NCBI GenBank assembly: GCA_026770705.1
Contig: JANJGN010000036.1
Location: 4,092,001-4,156,000 of the forward strand
Reading direction: 5' to 3'
Length of the DNA stretch: 64,000 nucleotides
From: Isurus oxyrinchus
Lineage: Eukaryota
Numbering within the stretch: the first letter of the stretch is position 1; each line of letters begins with the position of its first letter. This document shows, piece by piece, positions 1 to 58,300 of the stretch. A model generated the notes under the pieces. It saw only the letters and a list, made by a program, of their open reading frames with translations, was not told the origin of the DNA and did not search any database. The position numbers and the translations under genes are program-made.

Positions 1-932
1 AACTCCCTTCCCCACTACATTCCTCTCTTTCCTCATTGAAGACGCTCTTTAAAACGGCCTCTTTGAAGAAGCTGATCATTGAGGCTAATCTCTTGGTTTC
101 AAATTCTGCTCCAAAACTCTGGTGAAACATCTCATGGCGTTTTATTGCGGTTAAACGTGTTATATAATTATAAGGTGTTGCCTGCCAGCTCTTGTACTTA
201 TCCATTACACTACAGGCAAAAGGGAAATATTCATTCACATCTGCTGCTGTACATCCTGCCTGTCTCAGCGTCAACTCTGAAACATGTATAGCACAATCTC
301 ATCCTTTATCTGTTAGTCTCTGTCTCCGTATATCTCTCTGAAATGAGCTTCTCTATTACAGAACAAGGAACAGAGAGAAGTACAGCACAGGAACAGGCCC
401 TTCAGCCCTCCAAGCCTGGGCCGATCATTATTGCCTGTCAAATGGAATTCAGATAAATACCTAAAGAGAAAAATAATTCCAGGGCAAAAATTATAAAATA
501 TCAGCTCTGGAACTTATTTGGCATTGGGGGTGAAAAGCCTAAAGTCATGTCAGAAGCAGCAGGGGTGGTGGCAATGGGTGATCTTTTGTCTCAAATCGAA
601 TGAATGAATTAAAAAGGGCCAAATCCCCTTCTCCGCAAACATGTTTCTCTAGTCTTTGATTAAAGTGATACATCCCGCCCTCTGCTGACGAACTGCAGCT
701 ACTGCACAGACAGGAGCTAAATCATTAGGGAATCACGAAGAGGGAGGACAATATCAAAGTAAAATGGGAGGAACATCAACGCAGCGACAACTTCAGTGTG
801 GAAGTAGAGCTCGGCATTTGTTAACATGACGCATAGAAAACCTGGCAAGACTTTGATAAATTATGGAGGTATGTAAATTACCTGAAATGTCTTTTACTTA
901 CTTTTAATGGTAATGTTTAATATGTTTCCTAG

Positions 933-1013
933 TCTCGGAGAGGACCTCCCTTTGGCTCCCTGGAGTTTGCTGCATTGGGCAAAAGATCAGAAAAGAAAGC
1001 GGGTCGCAGATGA
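933..1013 (+). CDS. Terminal coding exon of an upstream paralog of the VJ-C1 receptor (SRRGPPFGSLEFAALGKRSEKKAGRR*); rest of gene lies 5' of the window; may be a pseudogene
   Basis: Acceptor tatgtttcctAG at 931-932; 81-nt exon colinear with 13837-13917, same stop position; homology continues into the flanking intron and 3'UTR; AATAAA at 1230-1235. Confidence 0.75.
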   Translation, partial: SRRGPPFGSLEFAALGKRSEKKAGRR

Positions 1014-2725: not shown

Positions 2726-4007
2726 AAAATTAAGGCATTTTAACTTTGGAAAATAGTCTGTATCAGGGATAAATGGATCATTCCACAGTTAGATACTTTC
2801 TTAATTACTTTCTTACCTTCAATATAGGGCAGGAAATTGATCAGATGTTTCCCAGAATTCACTATCATCCCAACTCAACATCGCCCCTGAAAATTGATTT
2901 TAGGAATATCAAAGTATGAGGACTTTCATAGAGTTAAACTGATAAATCCAGGCTGCTGGCTGGCTTTGACTTACGGCTTAGATGGTACCTCCTTCACCTT
3001 TGAATAAGAAGGTTGTGGGTTCATGTCCACTTACAGAGTGATGCTTTCAGTATCAGTACTGAGAAAGGGAAGGAGCACTTGGGAAGGAGCTGTTTCTCAG
3101 GCGCGATTTAGAAATGCGAGCCTGTCAAACATCTCAGCTGCATGCAAAAGATCCCACAGCCACCATTGGAAGACGTGTAGGCGGGGGTGAAAAACTCCTT
3201 TGTGTCCTGAGACCAAAACTTACCCGGCTGTCAAATCTGTCCATTGTCACGTTGATGGTTGTGCGAATTGCTCTGCACAAATTGGCTTATGCGTTTCTCA
3301 CATTACAACGGAAATGACATTTCAAAAAAGAACTTAATTGACTGCCAATTGCTAAGGGATGCACTGAGGTCGCGAAAGGTGCTATAGAAATGCGCGTCTG
3401 TCTCTGTTTTTAAACTCCGAGATCTCATGTTAAGTTGGGGTACCGAGCGGCCAGGTCATTTTAATGTGACTGGAAAGTGTAAAGTGTAAGTGGAGAAAAG
3501 GGAGGGGGAAGGGGTGAAATTTGAATAAAACATGAGCTTTTGGGCCCGATAACAAGGGAGATGAAGAATGAAGAAAGATTGGATATGAGAGTCTTGGACG
3601 GAATGTCCAAATGTTAGCCGGGCTCCAAAGGGACGCTAATATTTTAAAGAGGAGAATAATAGTTCCATCAGAGTTTAACATTTGTTCAGCAGGGATACTT
3701 TCACATGTTTCCCCCTCCTGTCCACACGGGGCCGCTCCAACGCCCTTCATGTCCTTCTATACTCTCTGGTCCTCCCGCAGTCACCTTTTGCCTCCCCCCG
3801 AGCCCGGCTGCTGCTCTTGGCGTGACTGTTTCTCTTTTTCAAAAAACCAAATCGTCAAAGGAAGTAGATCCTCTGCAGATTATTTACAGATTGCTATATC
3901 TCCATTCTCCCCTTCCTGAAATCTGTCTGTGTCGCTGCATAAATGGATCATTGATTCACGTGTTTGAGATGCAAACCAAAATGGAAAAGCAGGCTCCCTA
4001 ATGCCTG

Positions 4008-4690
4008 AGGGATATAGGGAGGATCACTGTGTCCTGAATATCTGTAAGATTTAGCAATTCACACAGAAAGAATAATGCACCTGTACAAGTCAGGGATATA
4101 GAGAGGATCAATGTGTCCTACATATCTGTAAGAGTTAGCAATTCTCACATACAGGATAATGTCCCTGTACAAGTGAAGGATATAGGGTGGATCATTGTGT
4201 CCTATATAGCTGTAGGAGTTAGCAATTCACACATGCAGGATAATGTACCTGTACAAGTGAAGGTTACAGAAAGAATCACTCTGTCCTGTACATCTGTAGG
4301 ATTTAGCAATTCACATACACAGGATAATGTACCTGTACAAGTGAGAGATATAGAAAGGGTTATCATGTCCTATATATCTGTCGCAGTTAGCAATTCACAC
4401 ATACAGGATAATGTACCTGTACAAGAGAATGATATAGAGAGGATTACTGTGTCCTGTATATCTGTAAGAGTTAGCAATTCACGCAAACCGAATAATGTAC
4501 CTGTACTAGTGAAGGTTACAGAGTGGATCACTGTGATCCTATATATCTGTACTACTTAGCAATTCACACACACAGGATAATGTATCTGTATAAGTGAGGG
4601 ATATAGAGGGGATCACTGTGTCCTGTATATCTGTAAGAGTTAGCAATTCACACAGACAGGATAATTTACCTGTACAAGTGAGGGAAGATC
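4008..4690. repeat. 84-bp minisatellite, about 8 copies
   Basis: Unit ~gtacaagtgagggatatagagaggatcactgtgtcctatatatctgtaagagttagcaattcacacacaggataatgtacct; aagtg recurs at 4592 and 4676 (period 84). Confidence 0.95.
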
Positions 4691-5990: not shown

Positions 5991-7249
5991 TTCGGTCACT
6001 TGAAATAAATATTGAAATATGAATTGTCCATTGATCTCAGAATCAAACTGAATAGAATGTGGAAAATATTAAAATATTTTTACCATGCAAATACGTGTTT
6101 GCGTTGAACTGGTTTAGACTCAGTGTTAAATAAAACGAAATTGTTAGTGAAGGGCTTTACAAATAGGTTCAGCTAGTTGATTTTCTTTGTGGGAGATGAT
6201 CAATCGGCTTTCGGATTCAAGTCAAGTAATATTTAAAAGCGATGAACATTAAAGAAACGCTTATTAAAATGTCCCTGTTAGACATCAATACTCACTCGAT
6301 CAACCGCTTTACTGATCCAAATCAGAATCAGGATGATGAGTAGAACCCGGATGATGGCGACAGTTATGGCAATGGATCAAAATGCACCATCCCAACCGAG
6401 ACAAATTAATTAGAAACTACTGATGGGTCAAATCATTCTTTTATGGGACTCCCTCATGGGAAACTTGAGCCAATTATAAAGTCAAAAAAGCAAATCCGTG
6501 CTGCAAATTCTCTGCAAGACTCCATAGGAACCCATGGCAGGGAATCTTTAGGAGAATGCCTAGGAACGGAAGTTGAGAGAGAAGAGGGAGATACATTCAT
6601 CTTAATGTGACTAACCTGGTAGAATGAATTACTGTCAGAATGTGTTTGGTAATGAGCAGACAGTGTTTTTCATTCCTGAGTGTCTGAACTGTTCTGCAGA
6701 AATACTTGACCTTGAATAACAAAGAAGAGAGTCAGTGGACCTTGCAGCAGAGAGCGGGGCTGGGAAACAAAGAGGCGCATTGGCTGTGACCGCGGCTGTT
6801 TACTGCGAGTCTCAGAAAGACACCTCGCTCGCAGCCCATTCGGGGGCTGTGCAAAACACATCGATTGATGTAACTAGCTGGACTTGATTCTGATCGCTTT
6901 TCGCTTGAGATGGAAAATGATTTTAGATCTAGAAGGTGTCGGTGGTTTTCCTGTTTTTACAGTTGAGTACAGAACCGCCTGCATTTGACTCAATGTTAAA
7001 CCGCAGACAGAAGAGCTTTTGCCGTCCAGGGTAGATTCAACTGAACAGAGAACAGTCTGGTGTACATTCACCTCATTTACAGTGTCCTCACCGACCTGAC
7101 ACCGGGATACTGTTTATCTGCGATGCCGGGTATTTGATTTAAAAAAAATAACTGATCCCCAATATTAATCACAATTGATGCACTCCCTTCATCAGAGACT
7201 CAGAGAGATAGTACTATCTATACACAGGCAGCACTGCAACCAATAGCCA

Positions 7250-8960: not shown

Positions 8961-9015
8961 ATGTCCAAGGAATCTTTATTTCTGATGCTCATTTTCCAAG
9001 TGCTGAGGTTTTATG
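8961..9015 (+). CDS. VJ-C1 Ig-superfamily receptor exon 1: signal peptide MSKESLFLMLIFQVLRFY
   Basis: ATG at 8961 (aagATG), hydrophobic 18-mer, phase-1 donor G|GTGAGT at 9016. Confidence 0.85.
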
Positions 9016-9286
9016 GTGAGTAAGAGGCGGGTGGGAACTCAGCCAGAATCAGGATTTAAGAAACTGAAAACGTGACCCAGTGACCAGGTGCATGGATTTG
9101 ACCTGATCATGTGAGTTTCTTTACTGGTTTCCCCGAAAAAACGAAGGAATCAAATTGGAGAATTAATCTAAGCGCGAAAAATTAAAGCCATTCATGTAAG
9201 CGTTGTAAAATTATACGCGAAGTCTTTCGAAGCGGCTGCTTTCAATCCCCCAATAACCAATAGTACTCTAACAATAATGTCTCTAG

Positions 9287-9619
9287 TTACAGAATCCGAG
9301 TCCCGTTTGCCTCAGAGTTCCATCATAATGACTGCTGATGTCGGAGAGACGGTGGAATTAGCCTCTCACTACAGTTACGAAGTGGGATTCGTGTCCAGCT
9401 ATTTCTGGTACAAACAGCGTGTGGGTGAAGCCCCGAAACGAATCGACAGCCAGTCCTGTCAGGGAGCCGATTGTAAGTTTATTTCTAAAAAAGGTAACAG
9501 CGAAAATGTGTTGATTCTGGAAATTCGCAATGTCCACGTGAATGACTCCGGTTCCTACTACTGTGCCCGTAGGGGTAACTATGCACCGCTCCGGAATGGA
9601 CCCATACTACTGGTTGGGG
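9287..9619 (+). CDS. Receptor exon 2: V-set domain with germline-joined J-like G strand
   Basis: GETVEL.., FWYKQRVGEAPK, LILEIRNVHVNDSGSYYCAR, NGPILLVG; phase-1 acceptor at 9285-9286 (in-frame alternative at 9291-9292); phase-1 donor G|GTAAGT at 9620. Confidence 0.92.
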
Positions 9620-9701
9620 GTAAGTAAAATAAATTCAGATCGTGCACAGCTTTAATATTTGGTGCAAATTAATCGTTAACTGTGCCCCAATCTCTGTCCA
9701 G

Positions 9702-10031
9702 ACAGTTCCACCAACAATACGACTGTGCTGGTGTTTGTCCCGCCGGGTGAGCTGCATTTGAGGGAAACCGTCCCCTTAGTGTGTTTGGTCAGTGGAGTTT
9801 CTTCCAACCAGATTTTCATTTTCTGGAATATTTCCGGATTGGTCACCGAGGGACAGAACGATCCCGGTACAATGGAAGCGGACGGGACTTACAGTATCAG
9901 AAGTCACGTCATGGTGTCGAGGGAAACCTGGAGAAGTGGTGGCGTCTGTATTTGTATCGTTCAACTGGGGTCTCGAAACAAATATTGGACAAAAAGCGTG
10001 TCGTTCCCCAAACGAGCAGAGGTAGGGACAG
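9702..10031 (+). CDS. Receptor exon 3: C1-set Ig domain
   Basis: VLVFVPP, LVCLVSG, IFWN, DGTYSIRSHVMVSRETWRSGGVCICIV (C1 signature as in Ig/TCR/MHC); acceptor tctctgtccAG 9700-9701; donor G|GTGAGT 10032. Confidence 0.92.
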
Positions 10032-10489
10032 GTGAGTTGGCAATCTGTTCAATGGCGGCTTTTAAGCGACTTTAGAGTCTATTGGAGTGATTAATTAGCT
10101 TTTGAGAACCTGCAGGATGTAAGTTTAATTATAAATATACATCTTATAAATATGTTAAAATAAGCTCGGGTTACATTTGCCCCAGTGTAGACTTCTTGTA
10201 AACAATTTCTGGGCTTTTCTTATATTTCCCCCTCACATCGTAAAATCCTAGAACGATGGACGCGGAAAGAGGGATTTCGGCCCATCGTGCCTGTGCTATC
10301 TCTTTGTAAGAGTTATCCCATTGGATCCACCCTTTCCCACCAACACTGACACATTTTCGTCTTCAATTTAGAACGTGATTCCTCTTCTGAAAGCTATTGT
10401 TGAATCCACTTCCACCGCCCACTCCTGGCAGTGGATCATGGAATGAAATTGAGGTCAGTTCCTCACTCGATGCGCTTTAAAAGCTGGAA

Positions 10490-10985
10490 ACAGCCAAGAA
10501 TGCTTTGGCGAGGGTATACAGGATATTTCCCAGAATGGGACCAGGGATGAAGGACTTCAGTTAATGTGGAGAGACTGTAGAATCTGGAATGTATCTCCTT
10601 AGAGCAGAGAAGGTTCAGGGAGAAATTTAATAGAGGCGTTCAAAATCATGAGGGGTTTTGATGGGATAAATAATGAGAAACAGTTTCCACTGGGCAGGAC
10701 GATCGGTAACCAGAGGGACCCAGGTTGAAGAGAATCGGGGAAATAACCAGAGGAGAAGATGAGGAGATTTTTCTTGAACTAAGCGGGTTGTGATCTGGAA
10801 CACTCTGCCCAAAAGGGCGGTGGAAGCAGATTCAAAGGGAAATTTCCAAAGGAGGAATTGGATAAATACCAGATGGAGAGAATTTTTCAGGGATATTGCG
10901 GGAAGAGCAGAGATGATTGGACTAATTGGGCACCTCTTTCAAAGAGGCTGCAATGGCTCAATCGTCGGGATGGACTGCTTCTAGG
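10490..10985 (+). mobile_element. CR1 LINE 3' fragment in receptor intron 3
   Basis: Degenerate RT C-terminus (ctccttagagcagagaagg..ggagaaatttaatagagg..ttcaaaatcatgaggggttttgat; IWNTLP). Confidence 0.7.
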
Positions 10986-11073
10986 CACCCTTTTGGATCA
11001 CGTTTCCCATCAGACAGTCCCAGAGAAAAATCATTTGACCGAGCAACAGTTTCTAAGTATTTTGTCTCTGTAG

Positions 11074-11175
11074 GATGGTGCAGTCCGGCCCTCCATGTCT
11101 TCATAACTGTCCTGGTGATACTGGTTCTACTCTTGGTCCTTATTTCCATTTGGATTCATAGAAGTGGCAGATCAG
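11074..11175 (+). CDS. Receptor exon 4: Cys stalk plus transmembrane helix (GWCSPALHVFITVLVILVLLLVLISIWIHRSGRS)
   Basis: Acceptor ttttgtctctgtAG 11072-11073; about 20 uncharged hydrophobic residues followed by a basic stop-transfer; phase-1 donor at 11176. Confidence 0.9.
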
Positions 11176-11273
11176 GTGACGATTAATATTTATCAGGGAC
11201 ATTTTCATAATTGGTTGTCCAATGTGACTCCCTGCTCGTAGTTTTAAATTGCTAATTTACTTTCTCCTTTCAG

Positions 11274-11304
11274 AAGAACGAGACAAGAGATCCCACAATG
11301 AAAA
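11274..11304 (+). CDS. Receptor exon 5: cytoplasmic mini-exon (EERDKRSHNE)
   Basis: Strong acceptor ctttctcctttcAG; donor AA|GTGAGT; phase 1 to 2. Confidence 0.8.
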
Positions 11305-11518
11305 GTGAGTAACTGAGGCATTTGAAAACTTCATGGCGAAATCCCTGACTATATTTAACATTGTGTCTAACACAGTTGAACCCTAGCATTGATTCCATCG
11401 ATATATTCTGTCATTTTCCATGAGCTTTTACAATTAATGCAAACACCACTCGACAATTTTCTTCTGCGCCAGGGTTCACAAAACATAACATGTGTTCGAA
11501 ATTTTTGTTCACATCCAG

Positions 11519-11571
11519 ATTTAACTTGAGAGAGAGAAAGCAAAGAGAGAGGCACAATGAGCGACAAATGG
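11519..11571 (+). CDS. Receptor exon 6: cytoplasmic mini-exon (KFNLRERKQRERHNERQM)
   Basis: Acceptor ttttgttcacatccAG; donor G|GTAAGT; phase 2 to 1, required to keep the frame between exons 5 and 7. Confidence 0.75.
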
Positions 11572-11972
11572 GTAAGTTACATTGAAATGTTGGCACAGAT
11601 TAAATTTCAAGTGGGTGGAATTGGAAAGATGCATAAGAGCATTTCCCGCCATCAAATTCCAGAATCACAATGCTGTCAGTGGGTGGCACAGAAAATCCCA
11701 ATTACTGGTTAATAATAGCAGCAACAATATACCAGTTGGAAAACAGGCCCCAGTGAGTGCATAGTGCTTGTCTTTCATTGGCGATTTTCACAGCACTGAA
11801 GTATTGAGGGACCTTCTGTGGATTTGGTGCCTGGTGACATATTGGGGCCCATTGATGTATTGGGGCCATTGGTACATTGGCGGATCATTGGTGCATGGTG
11901 TATCTCTAATAATAGTGGATTATCCAGGCTGGGATAATATTTTAATTTATACCTTATCCATTAATAACACAG

Positions 11973-12022
11973 ATGACCACCGTCAAACAGAGGCAAAGCG
12001 CGCACATCGGGATGTAATACAG
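11973..12022 (+). CDS. Receptor exon 7: cytoplasmic mini-exon (DDHRQTEAKRAHRDVIQ)
   Basis: Acceptor acacAG 11971-11972; donor CAG|GTGAGT 12023; phase 1 to 0. Confidence 0.75.
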
Positions 12023-13836
12023 GTGAGTTTTTTTCAAACCGTTGTAATTACATGCAAAAACGTGTTTTTTGGGATAAGGTACAAGGCTGCCCAAGCTGTG
12101 TATTCCACGTGTTTACCAGAGAGCAGGTCCAGAGCACCTGAATTTGTATAAAATCCCACTCGCCCCTGTAACTGGAATCAGAAAATATACCCCAGTCCCT
12201 CTTCCCATCTGATAATAGAAAGGACAGGATAATTTTCTGGGTAGAATGTCCCCGTCAGGTTAACGGCGGATTTCCAGCACTTCATATTTCAGATTTCTGC
12301 TATTTTCTTTTATCTCTACATTGAGTCTTATCCCCCTCACTCAACTCCCACCTTTGTCCCTCCTCCGACTCAGCCAAATTAGTAAATACGTTGGCGAATG
12401 GAATTACTGGGAAGATAAGGCCAAACCCACAGGAGTTTTGCAGATAAATCAAAATGTGTTGCTGTTGTCATTGGACTAAGAAGGAATCAGTTGGAGCAGA
12501 AATTTTGCGTTTGTGTGTGTGTGTGTGTGTGTGTTCAGAGGCTTGAGCAGAGAGTCTAGACTGAACTTCCAGAGCGAGTGCTGCACTGTCTGAGGTGCCG
12601 ATTTCACATGAATCGTTAAATCGAGGCCCTGTCTGCCCTCTCAGATAGTGCGTGGCATACAAGGCCATGGGCCTGGTGCTGGAAAATGGGATTAGAATAG
12701 TTAGGTTCTTGTTTGACCGGCACAGACTCCATGTGCTGAAGGGCCTTTTTCTGCGCTATTGACCTCTATGGCTCTATGACTACTGCCATTATTGCAAGAA
12801 GAACAGTGGTGGGGTATTGGGGGGATGGTAGATGCCGGGTTGGGGGGGTTCTCTCTGGTGTTGGGTTTCATATTTTATCTTTCAACCAGCATCTTAAAAA
12901 AGTAAATTATCTAGCTCATCAATTCATTGCCGCTTATGGGATCTTACTGTGCATAAATTCGCTGCCCTGTCGCATTAAGAACAAAAAAAGTGGATGTGAA
13001 TGTTCTGAGGCTTCTTCAGTTCATGGTGGACGTTATATAAACGCACGTCTTTTGATTGTGTTTGCGTCATTCTTCTGAAAGTGATGAATTCTGTGGCCTC
13101 TACTCAATCGTGTAGATGGCACATGGTGAAACACAGTAATCGGATTCAACAAAGGAATCCAATCAAATTGATAGACTCAGCACCCCAGTTTTCTGATTAA
13201 ATTTTGGTCAGTTCCAGTTGCTTTACAAATTCTGTTGCTCGGTCAAAAAACATAAATTCAGACATTTTTTTGTCAGACAAATGAAGCAAAACATTCCTCA
13301 AATTGATATACAGGGCAATGGAAACCAATCCAACAGCAAACTTCAAGAAGGGATTAGAAAAATATTGGAATGGGAAAATAATGGTGGCGATATGGGGGCA
13401 GAGAAGTGCAGAGGTGGTCTAACTGTATAGCTCTTTCAAAGAGTTGGCACAGACACAATGGGTACAACGGACACCTTCTGTGCTGTATCATTCTGTAATT
13501 GTGTAAAACGTGGTTACGGGAGTGGGTAATTTTGACTATCTCAGAGATTCATAGTCAGAGAATCGTAGAGATCTACAGCACAGAAAAAGACCCTACCACC
13601 CATCGAGTCTGTGCCGGTCAAACAAGTACTTAACTATTCTACTCCCATTTTCCAGGTGCTAGGCCCATAGCTTTGTATGCCATGGCATCACAAGTGCATT
13701 TCCAAATACTTCTTAAATGTTACTTAAGGGTTTCTGCCTCTACCACCCTTTCAGACAGTGAGTTCCAAATTCCCACCATATTCTGGGCGAAAGTGTTTAG
13801 AAACATTTCGCTGTTAATGTTTAATATGTCTCCCAG

Positions 13837-13917
13837 GCACAAGGCGGACCTCTCTACGCATCCCTGGACTTGGCTGCATTGGAAAAAAGATCAAAAAAGA
13901 AGGCGGGTCGCAAATGA
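13837..13917 (+). CDS. Receptor exon 8: terminal exon AQGGPLYASLDLAALEKRSKKKAGRK* with ITIM-like YxxL
   Basis: Acceptor tgtctcccAG 13835-13836, phase 0; conserved with the paralogous exon at 933; AATAAA at 13990 and 14258; summed exons total 1035 nt = 344 aa + stop. Confidence 0.8.
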   Translation, partial: AQGGPLYASLDLAALEKRSKKKAGRK

Positions 13918-15189
13918 GAATCCTGCCTGTTTCTCTCTGATGAATTATGGAGTTGACAGGATTTGTCAAAAAACCCATAGCCTTGTGGAAATAAACATGG
14001 AGCCGAAGAGGCTCCCATGAAGCAGTTATCTTTCCCCATGCACTCACCAGAGCTTGCAAACACTGGCTCATTTTGTTAAATATAGAAGCTGTTTTAAATA
14101 TTATTAAGGATATCCCACCGCTATCATGTAATTTAAGTGTAAAAGAAACATTGAGCAAAGACTAAGAACTTTCCTTATTTTCTCTGCAATTTGCCTGCTG
14201 ATTATGTTAGTCCAGTTACTGACAGGATGTTCATTTCTTGACAAATGTCTGTATGTAAATAAAATAAATTATTCCTCGACTATAACGATGCACCAGAAGT
14301 TTGTATTGATTAATAATTAAATTATAATTAAATATCACTTGGTTAAAACTGCAATTTCTGCGAAGTTGGCAATATCAGTCCTGGGTTAAGAAGCTCTCAG
14401 TGCTGTGTTTCTTTCTCTGAGATATGTGTTCTATCATTTACTGAATTAGAGCACAGCAAGACAGAGACTCGGGCAGTGATTCAGAAAACTTGTAATTGTT
14501 CTGTTTCATTTTTACAAAGCCCCCTTCTGGTTAGTGTTCAACTTTAAACCTACATGTCAGTGTTGTCACATGAGTATGGCTTGTTTTGGAGCAAGAGGTG
14601 CTGTGGAAGGTGGAGTGGAAATCTGGATCTCTCTCCCTCAGAAAGCTGTTGATGTGTAAGTACCAAGGGGTCGGGGAACAAGGTGAATGAGTCGGGTTTC
14701 GTACATGAAGTGAACATGAATGTTGTTTTTATATATTTTGGGGACACGGTGGTATTCGATGAAGAAAGATGTGTGTGTGTGTGTGTGTGTATGTGTGTGT
14801 GTCTGTGTGTCCATGGATAATTAAACTGGGGAAATTTAGTAAAGACAGATTGCCTGTGGGAGCTTAGGGATGAAATATAAAAGTGCTGAATGCATGCATT
14901 TGTCATGAGAGGCTATGGTGATGTTGGCATTATAAGCAAATACGTGAGGGCTTGTCTTTTCAGTTGCCAATATTTCATAAGTGAGCAAGGGAAGGTTATT
15001 AAATTTTATTTGATGCAGATGTGGAGGCAATAGAGAGGCATGGAGGATTTTTTAGATTGGAAAATTTGAGTTAAAGGGATGCTTAGGACAGTGGAGCTCA
15101 AGATGAAAGTGGGAAAATAGTATTTAAGGGAAATGCTTAATTGAGTTGAGGCGGCTGTGTGAGGGGAATGCCCTGAGCCCAGAGATTGT

Positions 15190-30205: not shown

Positions 30206-31635
30206 TTGAGAAAGCAAGTTGATTAAGAAACAACAGTTTAGATATGATACATTTACTAATTAGGCAGAAGTGTCCAACCCGGAACTGCTCAAGAAAGCAG
30301 CACTCCGCTCTCCAGTCCAAGTGTTAGTAAACTCTTCCCTCGATCTCTTGACTTTCCTCCTCCTCCCCTGGTCCAGCCTCCATCTGTAGAAGGCATTTCC
30401 CCAACGAGAACTGCTCCCCCACCAGCACCTAGCAGCACCTCAGCCCCCTACCACCAATATGAGCCCTATCTGTATACCCTTTTTTGGGGGCCAGTAGCTT
30501 ACCCAGTGTCAATCATCTAACTCTTCTGACCAATGGATACAGGACAGGTAGTCAAAACATCAGGGTGGTTACCACTTTGAGGTGAGAGGTCAGCATCTTG
30601 CTGAGGGTCATACCCTGACCTTTCCTGAACGCATGGGAGATAAGGGGGTACACAGAGCCCCACCTAAACACTCGGATATCCGAAAAGGGCAGCCTGAGCT
30701 AAGCGACCATGCTGTTTCTGAAGGCTGTTCAGAGGTCAAAGTGTTTGTAAAGAGGGGCAATCAATGCTGCATAGGAAATCCTATAAAACGCAGAAGATAC
30801 CTGCTTATTAAAGACCCCAATTTCTTACAATCCGGCAGACTGGCCAAACCACCTGGTCTTTCCCTATGACTGAGGGGTGGTAACAGTGGCTTGGGGTGGA
30901 GTAAGTGAGGGGGAGGTAGGGTGTGTAAATACTTGAGTATTTGAGTACAGTATAAGACCTGGGGAATGTAGTGAGAAGGGTTAAAAGCTCTTATGCTAAT
31001 AGCTAATAAACATCATCAGTGGGATCAGATCCGCATGTGACTGGGCCTCAGTGAGACATGGTTCCGAAAGGAGCCTTGTCCACGAAGTTCCCGAATGCCC
31101 GGTTTCCAGACATCTCTCTTCCACACACCCTGGGACCAGCTACGATGATATTTCAGCCCTCACCCACTCGCAACACATCGCCGTTCCACACAGGACCCAC
31201 ACCACCACCCGCTCGCCACTCAGTGTCAAAACCCTAGCGGCCTGGTCCCCGAGTCCTCGCGGCAACTCAGGAGTGAGGCAGTGAGGGCTCTGCAGGGGAA
31301 CGGCAGGCGAGGGCTGGGAGTGGGGCAGTAAGGCAGCCAGAGAGAGGAGCAGCGGTGAGGGGTTGGGAGCTGGGCGGCAGGAGGAACAGCGAGCCGGCTG
31401 GCTGGCGAGGCAGCGAGGGGGGTTGGGAGTAGGGAAGTGATCGACACGGGTCTAGTTAATGCAGCATCACTGGCAGTAACAGACACTGCAGCTACATGCA
31501 TGGTGAGGGCACCCTTTGCAATTGCATTGTGAGCAAACGCAGCCCATCTTCATCCATCCTGTAGCTTTCCTCTGACCAGAGCTGGATTTTCCACCATCTC
31601 CATATTGAGACTCTCTGATTCCTATTCTCAGCTGA

Positions 31636-32065
31636 AGTGGTCCCCAGTGTGGTGTCTCGGTGTAAGTGGTCCCTGGGTGTGGCGTCTCGGTGTAAGTGGT
31701 CCCTGGGTGTGGTGTCTCGGTGTAAGTGGTCCCTGGGTGTGGCGTCTCGGTGTAAGTGGTCCCTGGGTGTGGTGTCTCGGTGTAAGTGGTCCCTGGGTGT
31801 GGCGTCTCGGTGTAAGTGGTCCCTGGGTGTGGCGTCTCGGTGTAAGTGGTCCCTGGGTGTGGCACCTCAGTGTACGTGGTCCCTGGCTGTGGCGTCTCGG
31901 TGTAAGTGGTGCGTGGGTGCGGCGTCTCAGTGTAAGTGGTGCCTGGGTGCGGCATCTCAGTGTACGTGGTCCCTGGCTGTGGCGTCTCAGTGTAAGTGGT
32001 GCGTGGGTGCGGCGTCTCAGTGTAAGTGGTGCCTGGGTGCGGCATCTCAGTGTAAGTGGTCCCTG
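31636..32065. repeat. 30-bp minisatellite, about 14 copies
   Basis: Unit gtgtggcgtctcggtgtaagtggtccctgg. Confidence 0.95.
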
Positions 32066-32560
32066 CATTTGGTCTCAGGGAGGAAACTCCTGGTTTTATC
32101 TCCACCTCCCCAACTACCTTCCTCAGCCAGAAGCTTTTGATCTTTCCCTGGCTTCTCTTTCTTTCCAGGCCTCATGTTTCACCGTGTTGTGGAAGAGGAT
32201 GTCTGCCCTGTCGAGGGTCCCTCTGCTGCACATTTTTGTACAGGTATTTCCCATTTAAAAGGGGAGAGGTGGAAGGTGTGCAAAGCTGGTACTCATCCAG
32301 AAGAGTTACCAAGGGAACCGAGAAATCATCTAAAGCTAAAAAGAACAAAACAGCCCAAAACAGAGCATTAATATATCTCCTCACCTTCGAAAATGAAACA
32401 GTCAACACAGTGTTCAGAACAAACCCGATTTATTTGACGTTTACCCAGGATATTAAATTCCAACCCATTTATCAGAAACAAACAGGTGACTGTTCAAATG
32501 GTCCAGCCGTGGGTGTGACTTAGCATCCGCATTGATAACCAAATCCAATCCTTGCAGGCA

Positions 32561-33883
32561 CTAGTGAACTTGCTGGTGTCTCAGCAGGTTAGATAACTTT
32601 GCGAATCCCTTCCCGCACACAGAGCAGGTGAACGGTCGCTCCCCACTGTGAACACTCTGGTGCGCAGTTAGGCTGGACGAGCGGGTGAATTGTCTCCCAC
32701 ACTCGGAGCAGGCGAAGGGTCTCTCCCCGGTGTGAACCCGCTGGTGAGTGAGGAGGTCAGACGAGCTGGCAAAGGCCTTCCCACACAGGAGGCAGGCGAA
32801 GGGCCTCTCCCCTGTGTGTAAGCGCTGGTGTCTCAGCAAGCTGGATTTCTGAGCGAATTCCTTCCCGCACTCTGTGCAGGGGAACAGCCACTCCCTGGCG
32901 TGGGAGCGCTGGTGTATCAGCAGGTTGGAGGACCGAGTGAACACCTTCCCGCACACCGGGCAGAGGGAAAGCCTCTCCCCGGTGTGAACCCGCTCGTGCT
33001 CTGCGAGGCGGGTCCTCTTCCTGCAGCGGGAGCAACGAGACGGTTTCTCGCCCGTCTGAGGCTGCTGGCGTGTATTCAGTTCCGCTGGGCTCTGAAAGGC
33101 GTTTCCGCAGCCGGAGCACTTGAAAGGCCTGGTGTGAATGCGCTGGTGCGTCTGCAGGCTGGACAGCCGCGTGAACCCCTTGCCGCACTCCGAGCAGACG
33201 AACGGCCTCTCCCCTGTGTGGCTGCGCATGTGGCCTTCCAGCTGAGACGGGTAAATGAATTCTTTCCCACACACAGAGCAGGCGAATGGTTTGTCCGCAG
33301 AATGGGCCCGCCGGTGTCTCAGCAGGTAGGTTGAATTAGTGAAGGTCTTCCCGCACTCCGAGCAGGTGAAGGGCCTCTCCTTGACGTGCTCACGCTGGTG
33401 GGTCCGGAAGTCGGCGGAGAGAACGAAGCCCTCCCCACACACGGAGCAGGTGAACGGGCCGGCGCCGGTGTGAACCCGCTGGTGTCTCAGGAGCTCGGAC
33501 GACTGCCTGAATCTCTCGCCGCACTGGGAGCAGCAGAACGGTCTATCGGTGTGAATCAGCTGGTGTGTGCTCAGCTCCTCGGAGCTTTTAAACCTGTCCC
33601 CACACTCCGAGCAGTTGAAAGGTTTCTCCACTGTGTGAATTCGCTGGTGCGTCAGCAGGTGGGCTGACTGGGTGAATCCCTTCCCACACTCGGAGCAGGT
33701 GAACGGCTTCTCCCCCGAGTGAGTCCTCTGGTGCTTATGTAGGCCGGAGGACTGAGTGAATCCCTTCCCACACTCGGAGCAGGTGAACGGCCTCTCTCCC
33801 GTGTGGTTGCGCCGATGAATTTCCAGAACAGACGGGGATCTGAATCCCTTCCCGCAGTCTCCACATTTCCACGGCTTCTCCAT
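32561..33883 (-). CDS. C2H2 zinc-finger protein, 440 aa, 14 intact + 2 degenerate fingers, no KRAB
   Basis: Tandem CxxC-x12-HxxxH with TGERPF linkers; last-exon acceptor ttttacAG at 34231-34230; minus-strand AATAAA at 32434-32429. Confidence 0.93.
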   Translation of the reverse strand: MEKPWKCGDCGKGFRSPSVLEIHRRNHTGERPFTCSECGKGFTQSSGLHKHQRTHSGEKPFTCSECGKGFTQSAHLLTHQRIHTVEKPFNCSECGDRFKSSEELSTHQLIHTDRPFCCSQCGERFRQSSELLRHQRVHTGAGPFTCSVCGEGFVLSADFRTHQREHVKERPFTCSECGKTFTNSTYLLRHRRAHSADKPFACSVCGKEFIYPSQLEGHMRSHTGERPFVCSECGKGFTRLSSLQTHQRIHTRPFKCSGCGNAFQSPAELNTRQQPQTGEKPSRCSRCRKRTRLAEHERVHTGERLSLCPVCGKVFTRSSNLLIHQRSHAREWLFPCTECGKEFAQKSSLLRHQRLHTGERPFACLLCGKAFASSSDLLTHQRVHTGERPFACSECGRQFTRSSSLTAHQSVHSGERPFTCSVCGKGFAKLSNLLRHQQVH

Positions 33884-34364
33884 GGTTCAGGCGTGCTCGT
33901 GTCTCTCCGGGGTTAGATGATCTGTTGAAGCTTCGTCCACACAAAGGACGTGCACATGGTTTCTCCCCACTGTGAACGGTGTGATGTCTCCTCAGGCTGT
34001 GTAACTGCTTAAAGCTCTTTCTACGGGCAGTGCACTGCAACACTCTCACTCGGGCATGTGTAGGTGCTTTTCCAGTCACACTGATGTTCAAAACCTATTC
34101 CCACTGACCGAACAGGCAAACATTCGAAGGCTGATGATATTCAGGTCCTGATGAATCGAGAGACTCTGTCAGATCTTGACAGGATGTTTGGTTTGAGTTT
34201 CCGTCTATAAATCCCCTCCATCTAATATCCTGTAAAAAGAGTTTAGAAAAGCCATCATCGTAAGTACAGGATAGAAATACAGAACAAAAATATTCTGCTT
34301 TCTATGTTTTATTTTCCACCCTTGTTTCCCCAAAGCTGTAAACTCCCATTCCGACACACACAAA

Positions 34365-36020
34365 CTCACTCTCTCTCATGCACACTCACTCTCTCTCCCT
34401 CTCACACGCACATTCACTCTCTCTCTCCCTCTCTCACGCACACTCTCTCTCTCACGCGCTCACTCTCTCTCACGCGCTCACTCTCTCCCCCTCTCTCACG
34501 CGCTCTCTCTCTCTCCCCCTCTCTCACGCGCGCTCGCTCTCTCCCCCTCTCTCACGCGCGCTCGCTCTCTCCCCCTCTCTCACGCGCGCTCGCTCTCTCC
34601 CCCTCTCTCACGCGCGCTCGCTCTCTCCCCCTCTCTCACGCGCGCTCGCTCTCTCCCCCTCTCTCACGCGCGCTCGCTCTCTCCCCCTCTCTCACGCGCG
34701 CTCGCTCTCTCCCCCTCTCTCACGCGCGCTCGCTCTCTCCTCCTCTCTCACGCGCGCTCGCTCCCTCCCCCTCTCTCGCGCGCTCGCTCTCTCCCCCTCT
34801 CACGCGCGCTCGCTCTCTCCCCATCTCTCACGCGCGCTCGCTCTCTCCCCCATCTCACGCGCGCTCCCTATCTCTCCCTCTCTCGTGCACACGCTCTCCC
34901 TGTCACGCGCGCTCGCTCTCTCTCCCTCTCTCCCGCGCGCTCGCTCCCTCTCTCTCTCCCGCGCGCTCGCTCCCTCTCTCTCTCCCGCGCGCTCGCTCCC
35001 TCTCTCTCCCCCGCGCGCTCGCTCCCTCTCTCTCCCCCGCGCGCTCGCTCCCTCTCTCACGCGCGCCCGCTCCCTCTCTCTCTCACGCGCGCCCGCTCCC
35101 TCTCTCTCTCACGCGCGCCCGCTCCCTCTCTCTCTCACGCGCGCCCGCTCCCTCTCTCTCTCACGCGCGCCCGCTCCCTCTCTCTCTCACGCGCGCCCGC
35201 TCCCTCTCTCTCTCACGCGCGCCCGCTCCCTCTCTCTCTCACGCGCGCCCGCTCCCTCTCTCTCTCACGAGCGCCCGCTCCCTCTCTCTCTCACGCGCGC
35301 CCGCTCCCTCTCTCTCTCACGCGCGCCCCGCTCCCTCTCTCTCTCACGCGCGCCCGCTCCCTCTCTCTCTCACGCGCGCCCGCTCCCTCTCTCTCTCACG
35401 CGCGCCCGCTCCCTCTCTCTCTCGCGCGCCCGCTCCCTCTCTCTCGCGCGCACTCACTCTCTCTCTCACGCGCACTCACTCTCTCTCTCACGCGCACTCT
35501 CTCTCTCACGCGCACTCACTCTCTCTCTCACGCGCACTCACTCTCTCTCTCACGCACACTCACTCTCTCTCTCACGCACACTCACTCTCTCTCTCACGCA
35601 CACTCACTCTCTCTCTCACGCACACTCACTCTCTCTCTCATGCACACTCACTCTCTCTCTCACGCACACTCACTCTCTCTCACGCACACTCACTCTCTCT
35701 CTCACGCACACTCTCACTCTCACGCACACTCTCACTCTCTCTCACGCACACTCACTCTCTCTCACGCACACTCACTCTCTCTCACGCACACTCACCTCTC
35801 TCTCTCACGCACACTCACTCTCTCTCTCACGCACACTCACTCTCACGCACACTCACACTCTCTCTCACGCACACTCACTCTCTCTCTCTCACGCACTCAC
35901 TCTCTCTCTCACGCACACTCACTCTCTCTCTCACGCACACTCACTCACTCCCTCTCACACACACATACACACTCTCACTCCCTCTCACACACACACACTC
36001 TCTCTAACGCGCACACACAG
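34365..36020. repeat. 1.65-kb compound (CT)n/CACGCGCG satellite in the ZNF intron
   Basis: Units of ~20-28 bp: ctctctcacgcgcgctcgctctctcccc, then cacgcgcgcccgctccctctct, then cacgcacactcactctct. Confidence 0.95.
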
Positions 36021-40439: not shown

Positions 40440-41920
40440 CAGTCTGCATTTGTCCTTCGCTTAAAGGCGCTCCCTCACCACTCTCCATTTACAGACACCT
40501 CCTCACTAGCCCTCCATTTACAGATACTCCTCACCAGTCTCTATTTAAAGATGCTCCCTCACCAGTCTCTATTTAAAGATGCTCCTTCACCAGTCTCTAT
40601 TTAAAGATACTCCTTCACCAGTCTCCATTTCTCCTCCAATCCAGATGCTCCCTCACCAGTTCCCATGTCTGCTCCATTTACAGGTGCTCCCTCACCAGTC
40701 TCTATTTAAAGATGCTCCCTCATAGTCCCCATGTCTCCTCCATTTACAGATACTCCCTCACCAGTCCCCATTCCTCCTCCATTTGCAGATGTCCTGTCAC
40801 CAGTCTCTATTTAAAGAGGCTCCCTCACCAGTCCCCATTCTCCTCCATGTACAGGCAACCCCACACCAGCCTCCATTTGCAGATGCGCACTCACCAGCCT
40901 CCATTTGCAGATGCGCCCTCACCAGCCTCCATTTGCCGACGCGCCCTCACCAGCCTCCATTTGCAGACGCGCCCTCACCAGCCTCCATTTGCAGACGCGC
41001 CCTCACCAGCCTCCATTTGCAGACGCGCCCTCACCAGCCTCCATTTGCAGACGTGCCCACACCAGCCTCCATTTGCAGACGTGCCCTCACCAGCCTCCAT
41101 TTGCAGACGTGCCCTTACCAGACCCCATTTCTCCTCAATAAACAGACGTTCCCTGAATTTCTGACTTTCCAGCACTCCAGGTCTACTGTGGCGCATGTGC
41201 TAAGAGTGCCGAGTGTTGATTTGGGCCAGGGTGATCTGCTGGCAAATGAATGGCAGTTGAATGCTTTTTTTAAGGTGCACTCAGAGTTTGTGCAGCCCCT
41301 GGTTTCTTAACCCGCTTGTTAACCAGTCCCCATTTCTCCTCCATTCACAGGTGCTCCCTCATCAGTCCTCATTTCTTCACCATTTACAGATGCGCCCTCA
41401 CAAGTCTCTATTTAAAGATGCTCTCTCACCAGTCTCCATTTTCACACATGCCCTCACCAGTCCCCATTTCACCTCCATTTACAGATGTTCCCTCACCAGT
41501 CCCCATTTCACCTCCATTTACAGATGTTCCCTCACCAATCCCCATTTCACCTCCATTTACAGACACTCCCTCACCAGTCCCCATTTCACCTCCATTTACA
41601 GATGTTCCCTCACCAATCCCCATTTCACCTCCATTTACCGACGCTCCCTCACCAGTCCCCATTTCACCTCCATTTACAGACGCTCCCTCACCAGTCCCCA
41701 TTTCACCTCCATTTACAGATGTTCCCTCACCAGTCCCCATTTCACCTCCATTTACAGATGTTCCCTCACCAGTCCCCATTTCACCTCCATTTACAGACAC
41801 TCCCTCACCAGTCCCCATTTCCCCTCCATTTACAGACGCTCCCTCACCAATCCCCATCCCCATTTCACCTCCATTTACAAACGTTTCCCTCATCAGTCCC
41901 CATTTCGCCTCCATTTAGAC
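40440..41920. repeat. Promoter-flanking minisatellite (28-bp and 39-bp unit arrays)
   Basis: ctcaccagcctccatttgcagacgcgcc (28 bp, 40860-41120) and ctcaccagtccccatttcacctccatttacagatgttcc (39 bp, 41450-41880). Confidence 0.92.
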
Positions 41921-41929
41921 AGCCCCCGG

Positions 41930-42280
41930 ATCCGCTCTTACCTGCTGCAACTCGGCATCCGGCGTCTAATGCACCTCTCCAGCGCATGCTCAGTGCGGAT
42001 GGTTGGTGTCAAGCGCGCATGCTCAAACTACACGGCCCAGTGAGCCCCTTCTGCGCATGCTCGGCCCCCTGCCGAGCAAGCCTCTCGTGCGCATGCCAAG
42101 ACTCACGCCTATGATCATCACGCAATGCCCATCAGCCTCTCCTGCGCATGCCCATTACACGCCACCCAATGAGCCTCTCCCGCGCATGCCCCGCGGGCCT
42201 CCCGCGCATGCTCATCTCACTGGTCTTCAATGTCCTCATTCAGAAGGAAGTACAGAGGCTGCTAAATGCTGGAAATCTGT
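41930..42280. promoter_or_regulatory. Bidirectional CpG promoter shared by head-to-head ZNF genes
   Basis: Seven GCGCATGC (NRF1-like) sites between 41981 and 42211; minus-strand donor (plus cttacct, 41937-41943) and plus-strand donor ct|GTAAGA at 42279. Confidence 0.7.
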
Positions 42281-47970: not shown

Positions 47971-48727
47971 TTTGGATCAACTGGATTCAAAGATTGGCAG
48001 GTAAAACTTAACTCAACAATAAGCTGTCTTTAAAGAACGCTCTTTAAAGGGAAAGTGTGGCCTGAAGCTCAGCTGGGGGTGAAATATGACACCAAGGTTG
48101 AGACCAATCTTGCCCAATCTCGCACAGTTGCCAAGGAGAGGGATGAGGTCGGTGGCTAGGGATTAAAATTTGTAGTGAGGATGGGAGACACTGGCTTCAG
48201 TCATACCAACATTTAATTGGAGCAAATTTTTGTTCATCCAGTGCTGGATGCCAGACAAGTTGTTAAGTGACTTGGAGAGAAACTTAGATGATGGTGTTCA
48301 CATATGCATACTACCCTTGTCCTTCTGGGTGGTGAGGATCGAGGGTTCATCAGGTCCTGTTCTGGTTGACTTTTCCTTATATAAAATCTCTCCTTCACCC
48401 ACTGCTCCTCCATAGAGGCCAGAATCTTGTGTAGGTACAGACCAGGTGGCAGGTTCCATTCCCTGAAGAACATTAGTGAACCAGTTGGGTTTTTATGACA
48501 ATCCACCAGGTTTCAGAATCACTTGTTCGTAGTGTCAGCCTCTCAAATAATCAGATTCATTCAGCTCAATTTCCTTGATGTTTCGCTCGATTCTCTCACA
48601 CTCCGTTTTTTCTGTTTTGAATCAATTTCACAGGGCATTGGGATTTGCATTCAGGAAACTCAGACATTACATCACGCTCTGAAGGAATCAGCTAATTTAT
48701 TGGAACCTGATTATCGTTGGTGTGAAC

Positions 48728-49438
48728 ATGGAAGGAATAAGCACTGTTCACAGTGGGGAGAAACCGTCCACGCGTTCTGTGCGTGGACGAGCCTTCAGCC
48801 AATCATCTGCCCTGTTGAGACAGAAGCACGGTCACTCCAGTGAGAAACCCTGGAAATGTAGGCACTGCGGAAAGTTATTCGGTTGCCCATCTGTGCTGGA
48901 AATTCATCAACGCATTCACACTGGCGAGAGGCCGTACACCTGCCCGGCTTGTGGGAAGGAATTCACTCAGTCATCCAGCTTGCTGATACACCAGCGCATT
49001 CACACCGGGGAGAGACCATTCAAGTGCACCGTGTGTGGAAAGGGATTCACTGTGTCATCCGGCCTGATGAAACACCAGCGAGTTCACACTGGGGAGAGGC
49101 CGTTCACCTGCTCTGAATGTGGGAAGGGGTTCACTCAGTTAGGCAACCTGAAGACACATCAGCGAATTCACACGGGAGAGAAGCCATTTACATGCTCCAC
49201 GTGTGGGAAGGCATTCACTGTGCATTCCCACCTGCAGGAGCACCGACGAGTTCACACTGGGGAGAGGCCGTTCGTCTGCTATGAGTGTGGGAAGGGATTT
49301 GTTAATTCATCCCACCTGCTGAGCCATCAGCGAGGTCACACTGGGGAGAGACCATTCACTTGCTCCAAGTGTGGGAAGGGATTCACTCGGTCATGCTACC
49401 TGCTGAGTCACCAGCGAGTTCACAATCAACCACAGTGA
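48728..49438 (+). CDS. C2H2 zinc-finger protein, 236 aa, 7 intact fingers + 1 degenerate N-terminal finger
   Basis: ATG at 48728 ([13 protein letters not shown]); TGERPF linkers; acceptor tttcacAG 48632-48633; AATAAA 49506. Confidence 0.9.

Positions 49439-57558: not shown

Positions 57559-58300
<742 letters not shown>

Follow-up and report, generated by a model that had tools for sequence, protein, structure and literature searches.

Non-rearranging receptor genes named PRARP and VJC1 have reportedly been described by Fu et al. and by Ohta et al. in 2019. These genes carry an RSS-less single-exon VJ, one C1 domain, and a TM, form a single pair or a small number of pairs in each genome, have ITIM/ITSM tails, and encode disulfide-linked homo- or heterodimers. 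We know of no NxxR activating form of PRARP/VJC1. A VJ-type domain and paired inhibitory/activating forms are also found in NITR (V-I), SIRP (V-C1-C1), and CD300 (a single V), and to our knowledge none of these families has two head-to-head chain types.

The shark family analysed here resembles PRARP/VJC1 in its RSS-less VJ exon, single C1, TM, tyrosine tail, and two related chain types (types I and II), as well as in its pairing, with 39 of 46 type II genes lying head-to-head with a type I leader, nearly all at a spacing of 2.3–2.9 kb. It differs in gene number, which exceeds 100, and in possessing an NxxR form. Compared by architecture, the family would fit PRARP/VJC1, and our homologue searches returned no sequence named PRARP or VJC1. 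Among the 20 of 150 matches that were looked up, V-C1-Cys-TM-tyrosine proteins occur in coelacanth, sturgeon, gar, lungfish, caecilian, turtles, and ostrich. The available text of two further papers names PRARP solely as a VJ gene (PMC10751288, PMC11599192). No description of the shark cluster was found in the mostly open-access literature searched; the 2019 PRARP/VJC1 papers and the UrIg paper may cover shark VJC1 genes.

The predicted signalling design is like that of FcR-gamma-coupled paired receptors. In LILRA/LILRB, NKp46, FcalphaR, OSCAR, and the Xenopus ILR/FCRL/SLAM receptors, as presented in the available parts of the sources, short-tailed members with an NxxR TM stand beside members with an ITIM and an uncharged TM, in large clusters with many pseudogenes and species-specific ectodomains (PMC6557307, PMC4536121). 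These features are shared with the shark family, but the ectodomain family is not, since LRC receptors such as LILR/KIR have C2-type Ig domains, whereas a V-set and a C1-set domain were found here. UrIg and UrIg2 are likewise elasmobranch non-rearranging VJ + C1 genes with a split leader that have been mis-annotated as Ig light chain, but they have 3 (UrIg) and 9–11 (UrIg2) C1 domains instead of one, and the available text presents them as single genes with liver/gill expression and describes no ITIM/NxxR pairing (PMC12227049). The V-C1-connecting Cys-TM order and the two chain types recall TCR alpha-beta/gamma-delta, but the shark family is without RAG rearrangement and carries its own tyrosine motifs rather than CD3-binding TM charges. 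Neither separate RSS-flanked V and J nor a TM-less secreted chain, as expected of Ig/TCR genes, was found among the genes read. By its predicted domain organization, the shark family is not part of the LRC, the IgL/TCR genes, or UrIg.

The window, that is, the whole 64,000-nucleotide stretch analysed (C36:4,092,001–4,156,000 of the 4.98 Gb genome), lies at the end of a receptor cluster of ~3.5 Mb. It contains one intact type I gene, hereafter gene B, and the remains of others:

710..868, + strand: intronic sequence of the relic, no exon (three stops; splice sites not common to paralogs)
933..1013, + strand: PFGSL last exon, an orphan, of a dead type I gene of putative activating type (NxxR TM)
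6296..6391, − strand: frameshifted TM-exon relic, ~2.5 kb upstream of the gene B leader
8961..9015, + strand: gene B exon 1, leader
9287..9619, + strand: gene B exon 2, V domain (V-set) with joined J-like G strand
9702..10031, + strand: gene B exon 3, C1-set domain
11074..11175, + strand: gene B exon 4, juxtamembrane Cys and uncharged TM
11274..11304, + strand: gene B exon 5, cytoplasmic
11519..11571, + strand: gene B exon 6, cytoplasmic
11973..12022, + strand: gene B exon 7, cytoplasmic
13837..13917, + strand: gene B exon 8, ITIM-like PLYASL and stop

The exons at 933–1013 and 13837–13917 are both 81 nt long, in phase 0, and preceded by an AG acceptor, and they encode SRRGPPFGSLEFAALGKRSEKKAGRR and AQGGPLYASLDLAALEKRSKKKAGRK, respectively, each followed by a stop codon. 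They share 63 of 81 bases, and codon 7 is TTT in the upstream and TAC in the downstream copy. The original prediction that this aligned pair of equal length and stop lies ~12.9 kb apart in one orientation (12,904 bp on a shared strand) and that the upstream copy has lost the sole tail tyrosine by a TAC>TTT change holds, as the TAC codon encodes the only tyrosine in the spliced gene B tail. With its flanks, the repeat extends over 166 bp (908–1073 and 13812–13977; 80% identity, E = 5e-37), beyond which no second gene B exon is repeated near the upstream copy.

Gene B has AG/GT at all junctions of its eight exons and a 344-codon open frame, in which Pfam detects a V-set (E = 2e-7) and a C1-set domain (E = 3e-9). 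The B-strand Cys of its V domain is replaced by Ser; in an alignment reading, this Cys is missing in 7 of the 25 intact type I V domains, gene B included, the scripted count of 8 containing one pattern miss. Gene B is likely an inhibitory member of a shark paired-receptor family, judging from its predicted tail motif and TM. Relics like that at 6296–6391 on the − strand also precede several other type I genes. Gene B closes the series of type I genes found in the cluster, and from there to C36:4,176,000 no family exon was found. Low-depth contigs from four runs presumed to be RNA cover family exons, none of them assignable to gene B, and introns as well; among those on family exons, one C1-to-TM join was found in run X12.

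In searches with the last exon and C1, all scored copies among the matches listed fell on C36, between 0.58 and 4.11 Mb; a genome-wide pattern search gave many off-target repeat matches and was used for C36 positions only. We read 1.8 of the ~3.5 Mb of the cluster, picked around the last-exon/C1 matches. These 1.8 Mb contain 69 type I genes (built of 8 exons, as gene B is) in which leader, V, C1, and TM are all present, 25 of them intact through the TM (19 with the motif, 3 with NxxR, and 3 others with broken tails), and 46 type II genes (6 exons, an FGNGS J motif, and the tail TLYARL), 35 of them intact, of which 23 have the motif. V and J form one exon, 81–102 bp from the single C1 exon of each gene, and FGxG is present in the type II J and degenerate in that of type I. 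A loose RSS pattern matched 2 of 60 V exons, and these two are near-identical copies. These gene structures show a family of predicted non-rearranging VJ-C1-TM chains of two types, arranged head-to-head ~2.5 kb apart, in which type I has either an uncharged TM and a PLYASL tail or an NxxR TM and a short tail without tyrosine. Since both chains are intact in only 4 of the 46 cassettes and a type II partner is missing from all 3 intact NxxR genes, this arrangement does not imply co-expressed heterodimers.

The dN/dS ratios (Nei-Gojobori, on non-independent pairs and without a significance test) were 0.61 and 0.72 for V and 0.49 and 0.44 for C1, and the values above 1 in a few 10-codon windows are suggestive only. 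A divergent type II-like C1 lineage (~50% identity) has open C1 frames at C36:1694689, 1926778, 2049446, 2457238, and other positions, none of them with an assigned V or TM of its own. Between 1.9 and 4.0 Mb, C36 contains large near-identical segmental repeats, in which some last exons and their flanks are identical, reflecting either recent duplication or assembly redundancy.

The original prediction had suggested looking for a charged TM residue in the paralogs, and an NxxR arginine is indeed present in 29 type I units; in four sister relics of the upstream copy, the motif reads NVVRM. Across 72 type I units with both a TM and a last exon, the unit of 933–1013 being left out, the tail Tyr is absent in 22 of 22 with an NxxR TM and kept in 43 of the 50 others; since the last exons form two clades and include near-identical segmental copies, the 22 cases are not independent. 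Three of the 29 NxxR units read are intact, with open frames through V, C1, and TM (C36:1685961, 3893897, and 3958108). These three genes have no exons 6–7, and each can be spliced only if an acceptor is shifted at some junction; in one of them, 11 nt are deleted at the end of the TM. Among the nine splice choices tried, none gave a tyrosine motif and one gave a lone tyrosine, and the tail is cut or frame-shifted before codon 7 is read in frame, with the exception of one splice choice. The inhibitory and NxxR forms share 77–81% ectodomain identity here and 87–98% in three other sharks.

A single Tyr-to-Phe event defining the activating class was rejected, as codon 7 encodes F, H, L, or S across the clades. 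The Tyr-to-Phe change is not the switch; from the predicted proteins, the defining change would be the TM arginine. Three genes with intact ectodomains have broken tails and an uncharged or differently charged TM. Two of them (C36:2316447 and 3239097) combine an uncharged TM with a frameshifted tail, and the type II gene opposite each is intact and has likewise lost its tail tyrosine; these are candidate signalling-dead decoy pairs. In the third (C36:982664), the Arg is one residue off the NxxR position and the tail is truncated, which may possibly represent an independent step towards an activating form.

The NxxR form is not confined to this genome. Best homologues came from lamniform sharks at 65–71% identity, where the queries were V-intron-C1 read-throughs of two paralogs and the identities include the intron-coded linker. 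Among 23 TM-bearing type I homologues of other species, 4 have NxxR and a short tail (Heterodontus, Scyliorhinus, Hemiscyllium, and Chiloscyllium; all annotation models), and the Scyliorhinus tail contains one YxxV. In a TM tree, the 7 NxxR rows form one group (SH-aLRT 94; 1 change, with 0 of 500 shuffles as low), although the tree has only 34 columns, among them the NxxR motif used for labelling. In a quick ectodomain tree, by contrast, the NxxR rows are scattered among same-species inhibitory genes (6 changes versus a shuffled mean of 6.7), and an NxxR/inhibitory pair of Hemiscyllium shares 98% identity in the ectodomain and 31% in the TM. This contrast is the pattern expected if an old activating TM exon were retained while the ectodomain was renewed from inhibitory neighbours.

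Ordinary pseudogene decay in a birth-and-death inhibitory cluster, in which the Arg is incidental, would also produce a tyrosine-less class. Such decay is in keeping with the 26 of 29 NxxR units that are broken, the loss of Tyr in 7 of 50 non-NxxR units as well, and the fact that no RNA record is listed for an intact NxxR gene, but it does not account for the NxxR TM, a single lineage found in four shark orders on ectodomains that match those of same-species inhibitory genes at up to 98% identity. Such a distribution needs long-term retention, and we regard mere decay as unlikely. The genes probably form a family of paired receptors whose NxxR form is ancient.

The linkage between NxxR and the tail thus bears out the idea of a paired-receptor family, with both motif-bearing and NxxR members, but that of a tandem array with functional divergence applies to the array and its motif-less Arg-TM members and not to the local pair, because the copy at 933–1013 is an orphan. 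The two exons do not belong to a working receptor pair: the upstream copy has no V, no C1, and no usable TM, and both outcomes that had been set against the idea, a lack of upstream V/C1 exons or disablement of all exons, are what we find locally. On the strand of 933–1013, no type I V or C1 exon was found within 80 kb upstream. The sole TM-like exon in that region is frameshifted, contains stops, and has no acceptor; this exon, at C36:4,079,280 on the + strand, was rejected as the TM of 933–1013, as it is a different relic beyond the homology breakpoint. The same strand carries, 7.6 kb upstream, the decayed remains of an exon 7, which has 49 nt instead of the expected 50.

The exon 7 relic, 933–1013, and gene B form a block that is an inverted copy of one occurring four more times, with about 85–91% identity among the blocks where compared. 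The block can be aligned with its sisters as far as C36:4,084,507, where homology breaks off ~0.7 kb short of the sisters' exon 5 and TM. In the four sisters, a stop immediately precedes the TM, whose sequence is NVVRM, AC stands in place of AG at the last-exon acceptor, the gene B counterpart is broken, and neither V nor C1 was found. When 82 last exons and their flanks were placed in a tree, 933–1013 grouped with these four NVVRM-TM relics (support 100/98), within a wider clade of 19 rows (100/100) that comprises NxxR genes and orphans and no intact gene; the other 18 last exons all stand alone or in broken genes. Since this clade holds no intact gene and V/C1 exons are missing upstream, 933–1013 is almost certainly a pseudogene relic, and its placement makes it a predicted descendant of the activating-type (NxxR TM) lineage. 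Duplication of a block that includes gene B has copied the relic no fewer than five times, and the present copy lost its TM exon at the breakpoint ~8.4 kb upstream, the sisters being already without V and C1. A second tyrosine-less last-exon relic of the same clade, with an internal stop, lies upstream of the window (C36:4081543–4081623, − strand).

It is very improbable that 933–1013 is the final exon of a functioning paralog without the tyrosine, whether an activating receptor or a decoy, located just upstream of the window. The intact acceptor, length, frame, and stop of 933–1013, unlike the AC acceptor of its sisters, and the exon 7 remnant on its strand would suit such a gene, but the 80 kb without type I V/C1, the frameshifted TM-like relic, and the 49-nt length of exon 7 argue against it. 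The relic reading also covers the sequence at 710–868, which had been flagged as a possible in-frame exon with stops: the stops at 827, 854, and 857 are present, but the exon is not. Its acceptor or donor is kept in none of the four nearest paralogous blocks, and none of the 16 paralogous stretches whose alignment reaches the donor has its GT. Since the splice sites are not preserved in paralogous blocks, 710–868 is ruled out as an exon and is intron. Most likely, 933–1013 is a nonfunctional remnant of a putative activating member, and 8961–13917 is a putative inhibitory member.

That the genes are germline-joined Ig light-chain clusters, which sharks possess, or TCR loci is very improbable, as the database labels 'immunoglobulin kappa/lambda light chain-like' and 'Ig heavy chain-like' and the antibody chains among solved structures as best matches are outweighed by each gene's own TM and tyrosine-motif tail exons, the joined V and J so close to C1, the two RSS-like matches in near-identical copies, and the weakness of the antibody matches themselves (type I best E = 2e-23).

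In a paired system of this kind, PLYASL/TLYARL tyrosine-motif chains would recruit SHP-type phosphatases, and NxxR chains would activate by joining an FcR-gamma-like adaptor through its TM aspartate. The juxtamembrane Cys, present in 24 of 25 intact type I and 35 of 35 intact type II genes, may join two chains in a TCR-shaped dimer. With signalling taken over by the TM arginine, the tail exons would be free to decay, the Tyr-to-Phe change being a record of that decay, and exchange between 'on' and 'off' genes may keep the ectodomains alike within species. The genome contains a zeta-like TM exon (C18) and, twice on small contigs (C1723 and C1648), a TM exon that we take to be FcR-gamma-like from its sequence features, all with Asp. 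The latter contradicts a 2014 survey whose available text reports no FcR-gamma in sharks (PMC4016189). In LRC, FCRL, and SLAM receptors, according to the parts of the sources available, NxxR marks FcR-gamma coupling (PMC6557307, PMC4536121).

The modelled complex of the Heterodontus type I and type II ectodomains scored 0.56, compared with 0.01 for the best control, in a range where passes are mostly wrong; the runs agree in at least 89% of contacts, and the partner pLDDT is 78. Of 78 solved pairs, 51 reached the mark for this score, as did 2 of 108 mismatched pairs, and passing scores of 0.60 or below came from only 5 solved pairs and all 4 passing mismatches. The model lends weak support to type I/II pairing, and likeness to Fab/TCR structures may produce the score.

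The exon at 933–1013 is ordinary debris, and the interest lies in the family that it marks: a non-rearranging two-chain VJ-C1 receptor with more than 100 genes and an activating form that would be common to four shark orders. NxxR-type activating receptors and an FcR-gamma-like adaptor would thereby predate the split between cartilaginous and bony fish. The family provides named candidates for shark innate-lymphocyte receptors and for the capacity of a pre-RAG antigen receptor, and it corrects database entries that name such proteins Ig light or heavy chains. As a tentative and rather doubtful extension, the cluster might be a germline TCR-shaped repertoire, in which ~25 type I chains pair in trans with ~35 type II chains, NK-like or other lymphocytes carry the many resulting heterodimers, and an ancient NxxR type I chain with FcR-gamma is the 'on' switch. 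If so, the cluster would exemplify, in a living animal, antigen receptors that owe their diversity to gene copying rather than to RAG, and it could supply the NK receptors still missing from sharks.

Beyond the receptor cluster, the window contains C2H2 zinc-finger genes at 32561–33886 (− strand), 48683–49438 (+ strand), and 57760–58300 (+ strand), a set with one 441-codon open frame, one shorter frame, and one frameshifted duplicate. Tandem repeats occupy 4006–4685 (84 bp unit), 31527–32156 (30 bp), 34263–36000 (28 bp), and 40446–41935 (39 bp).
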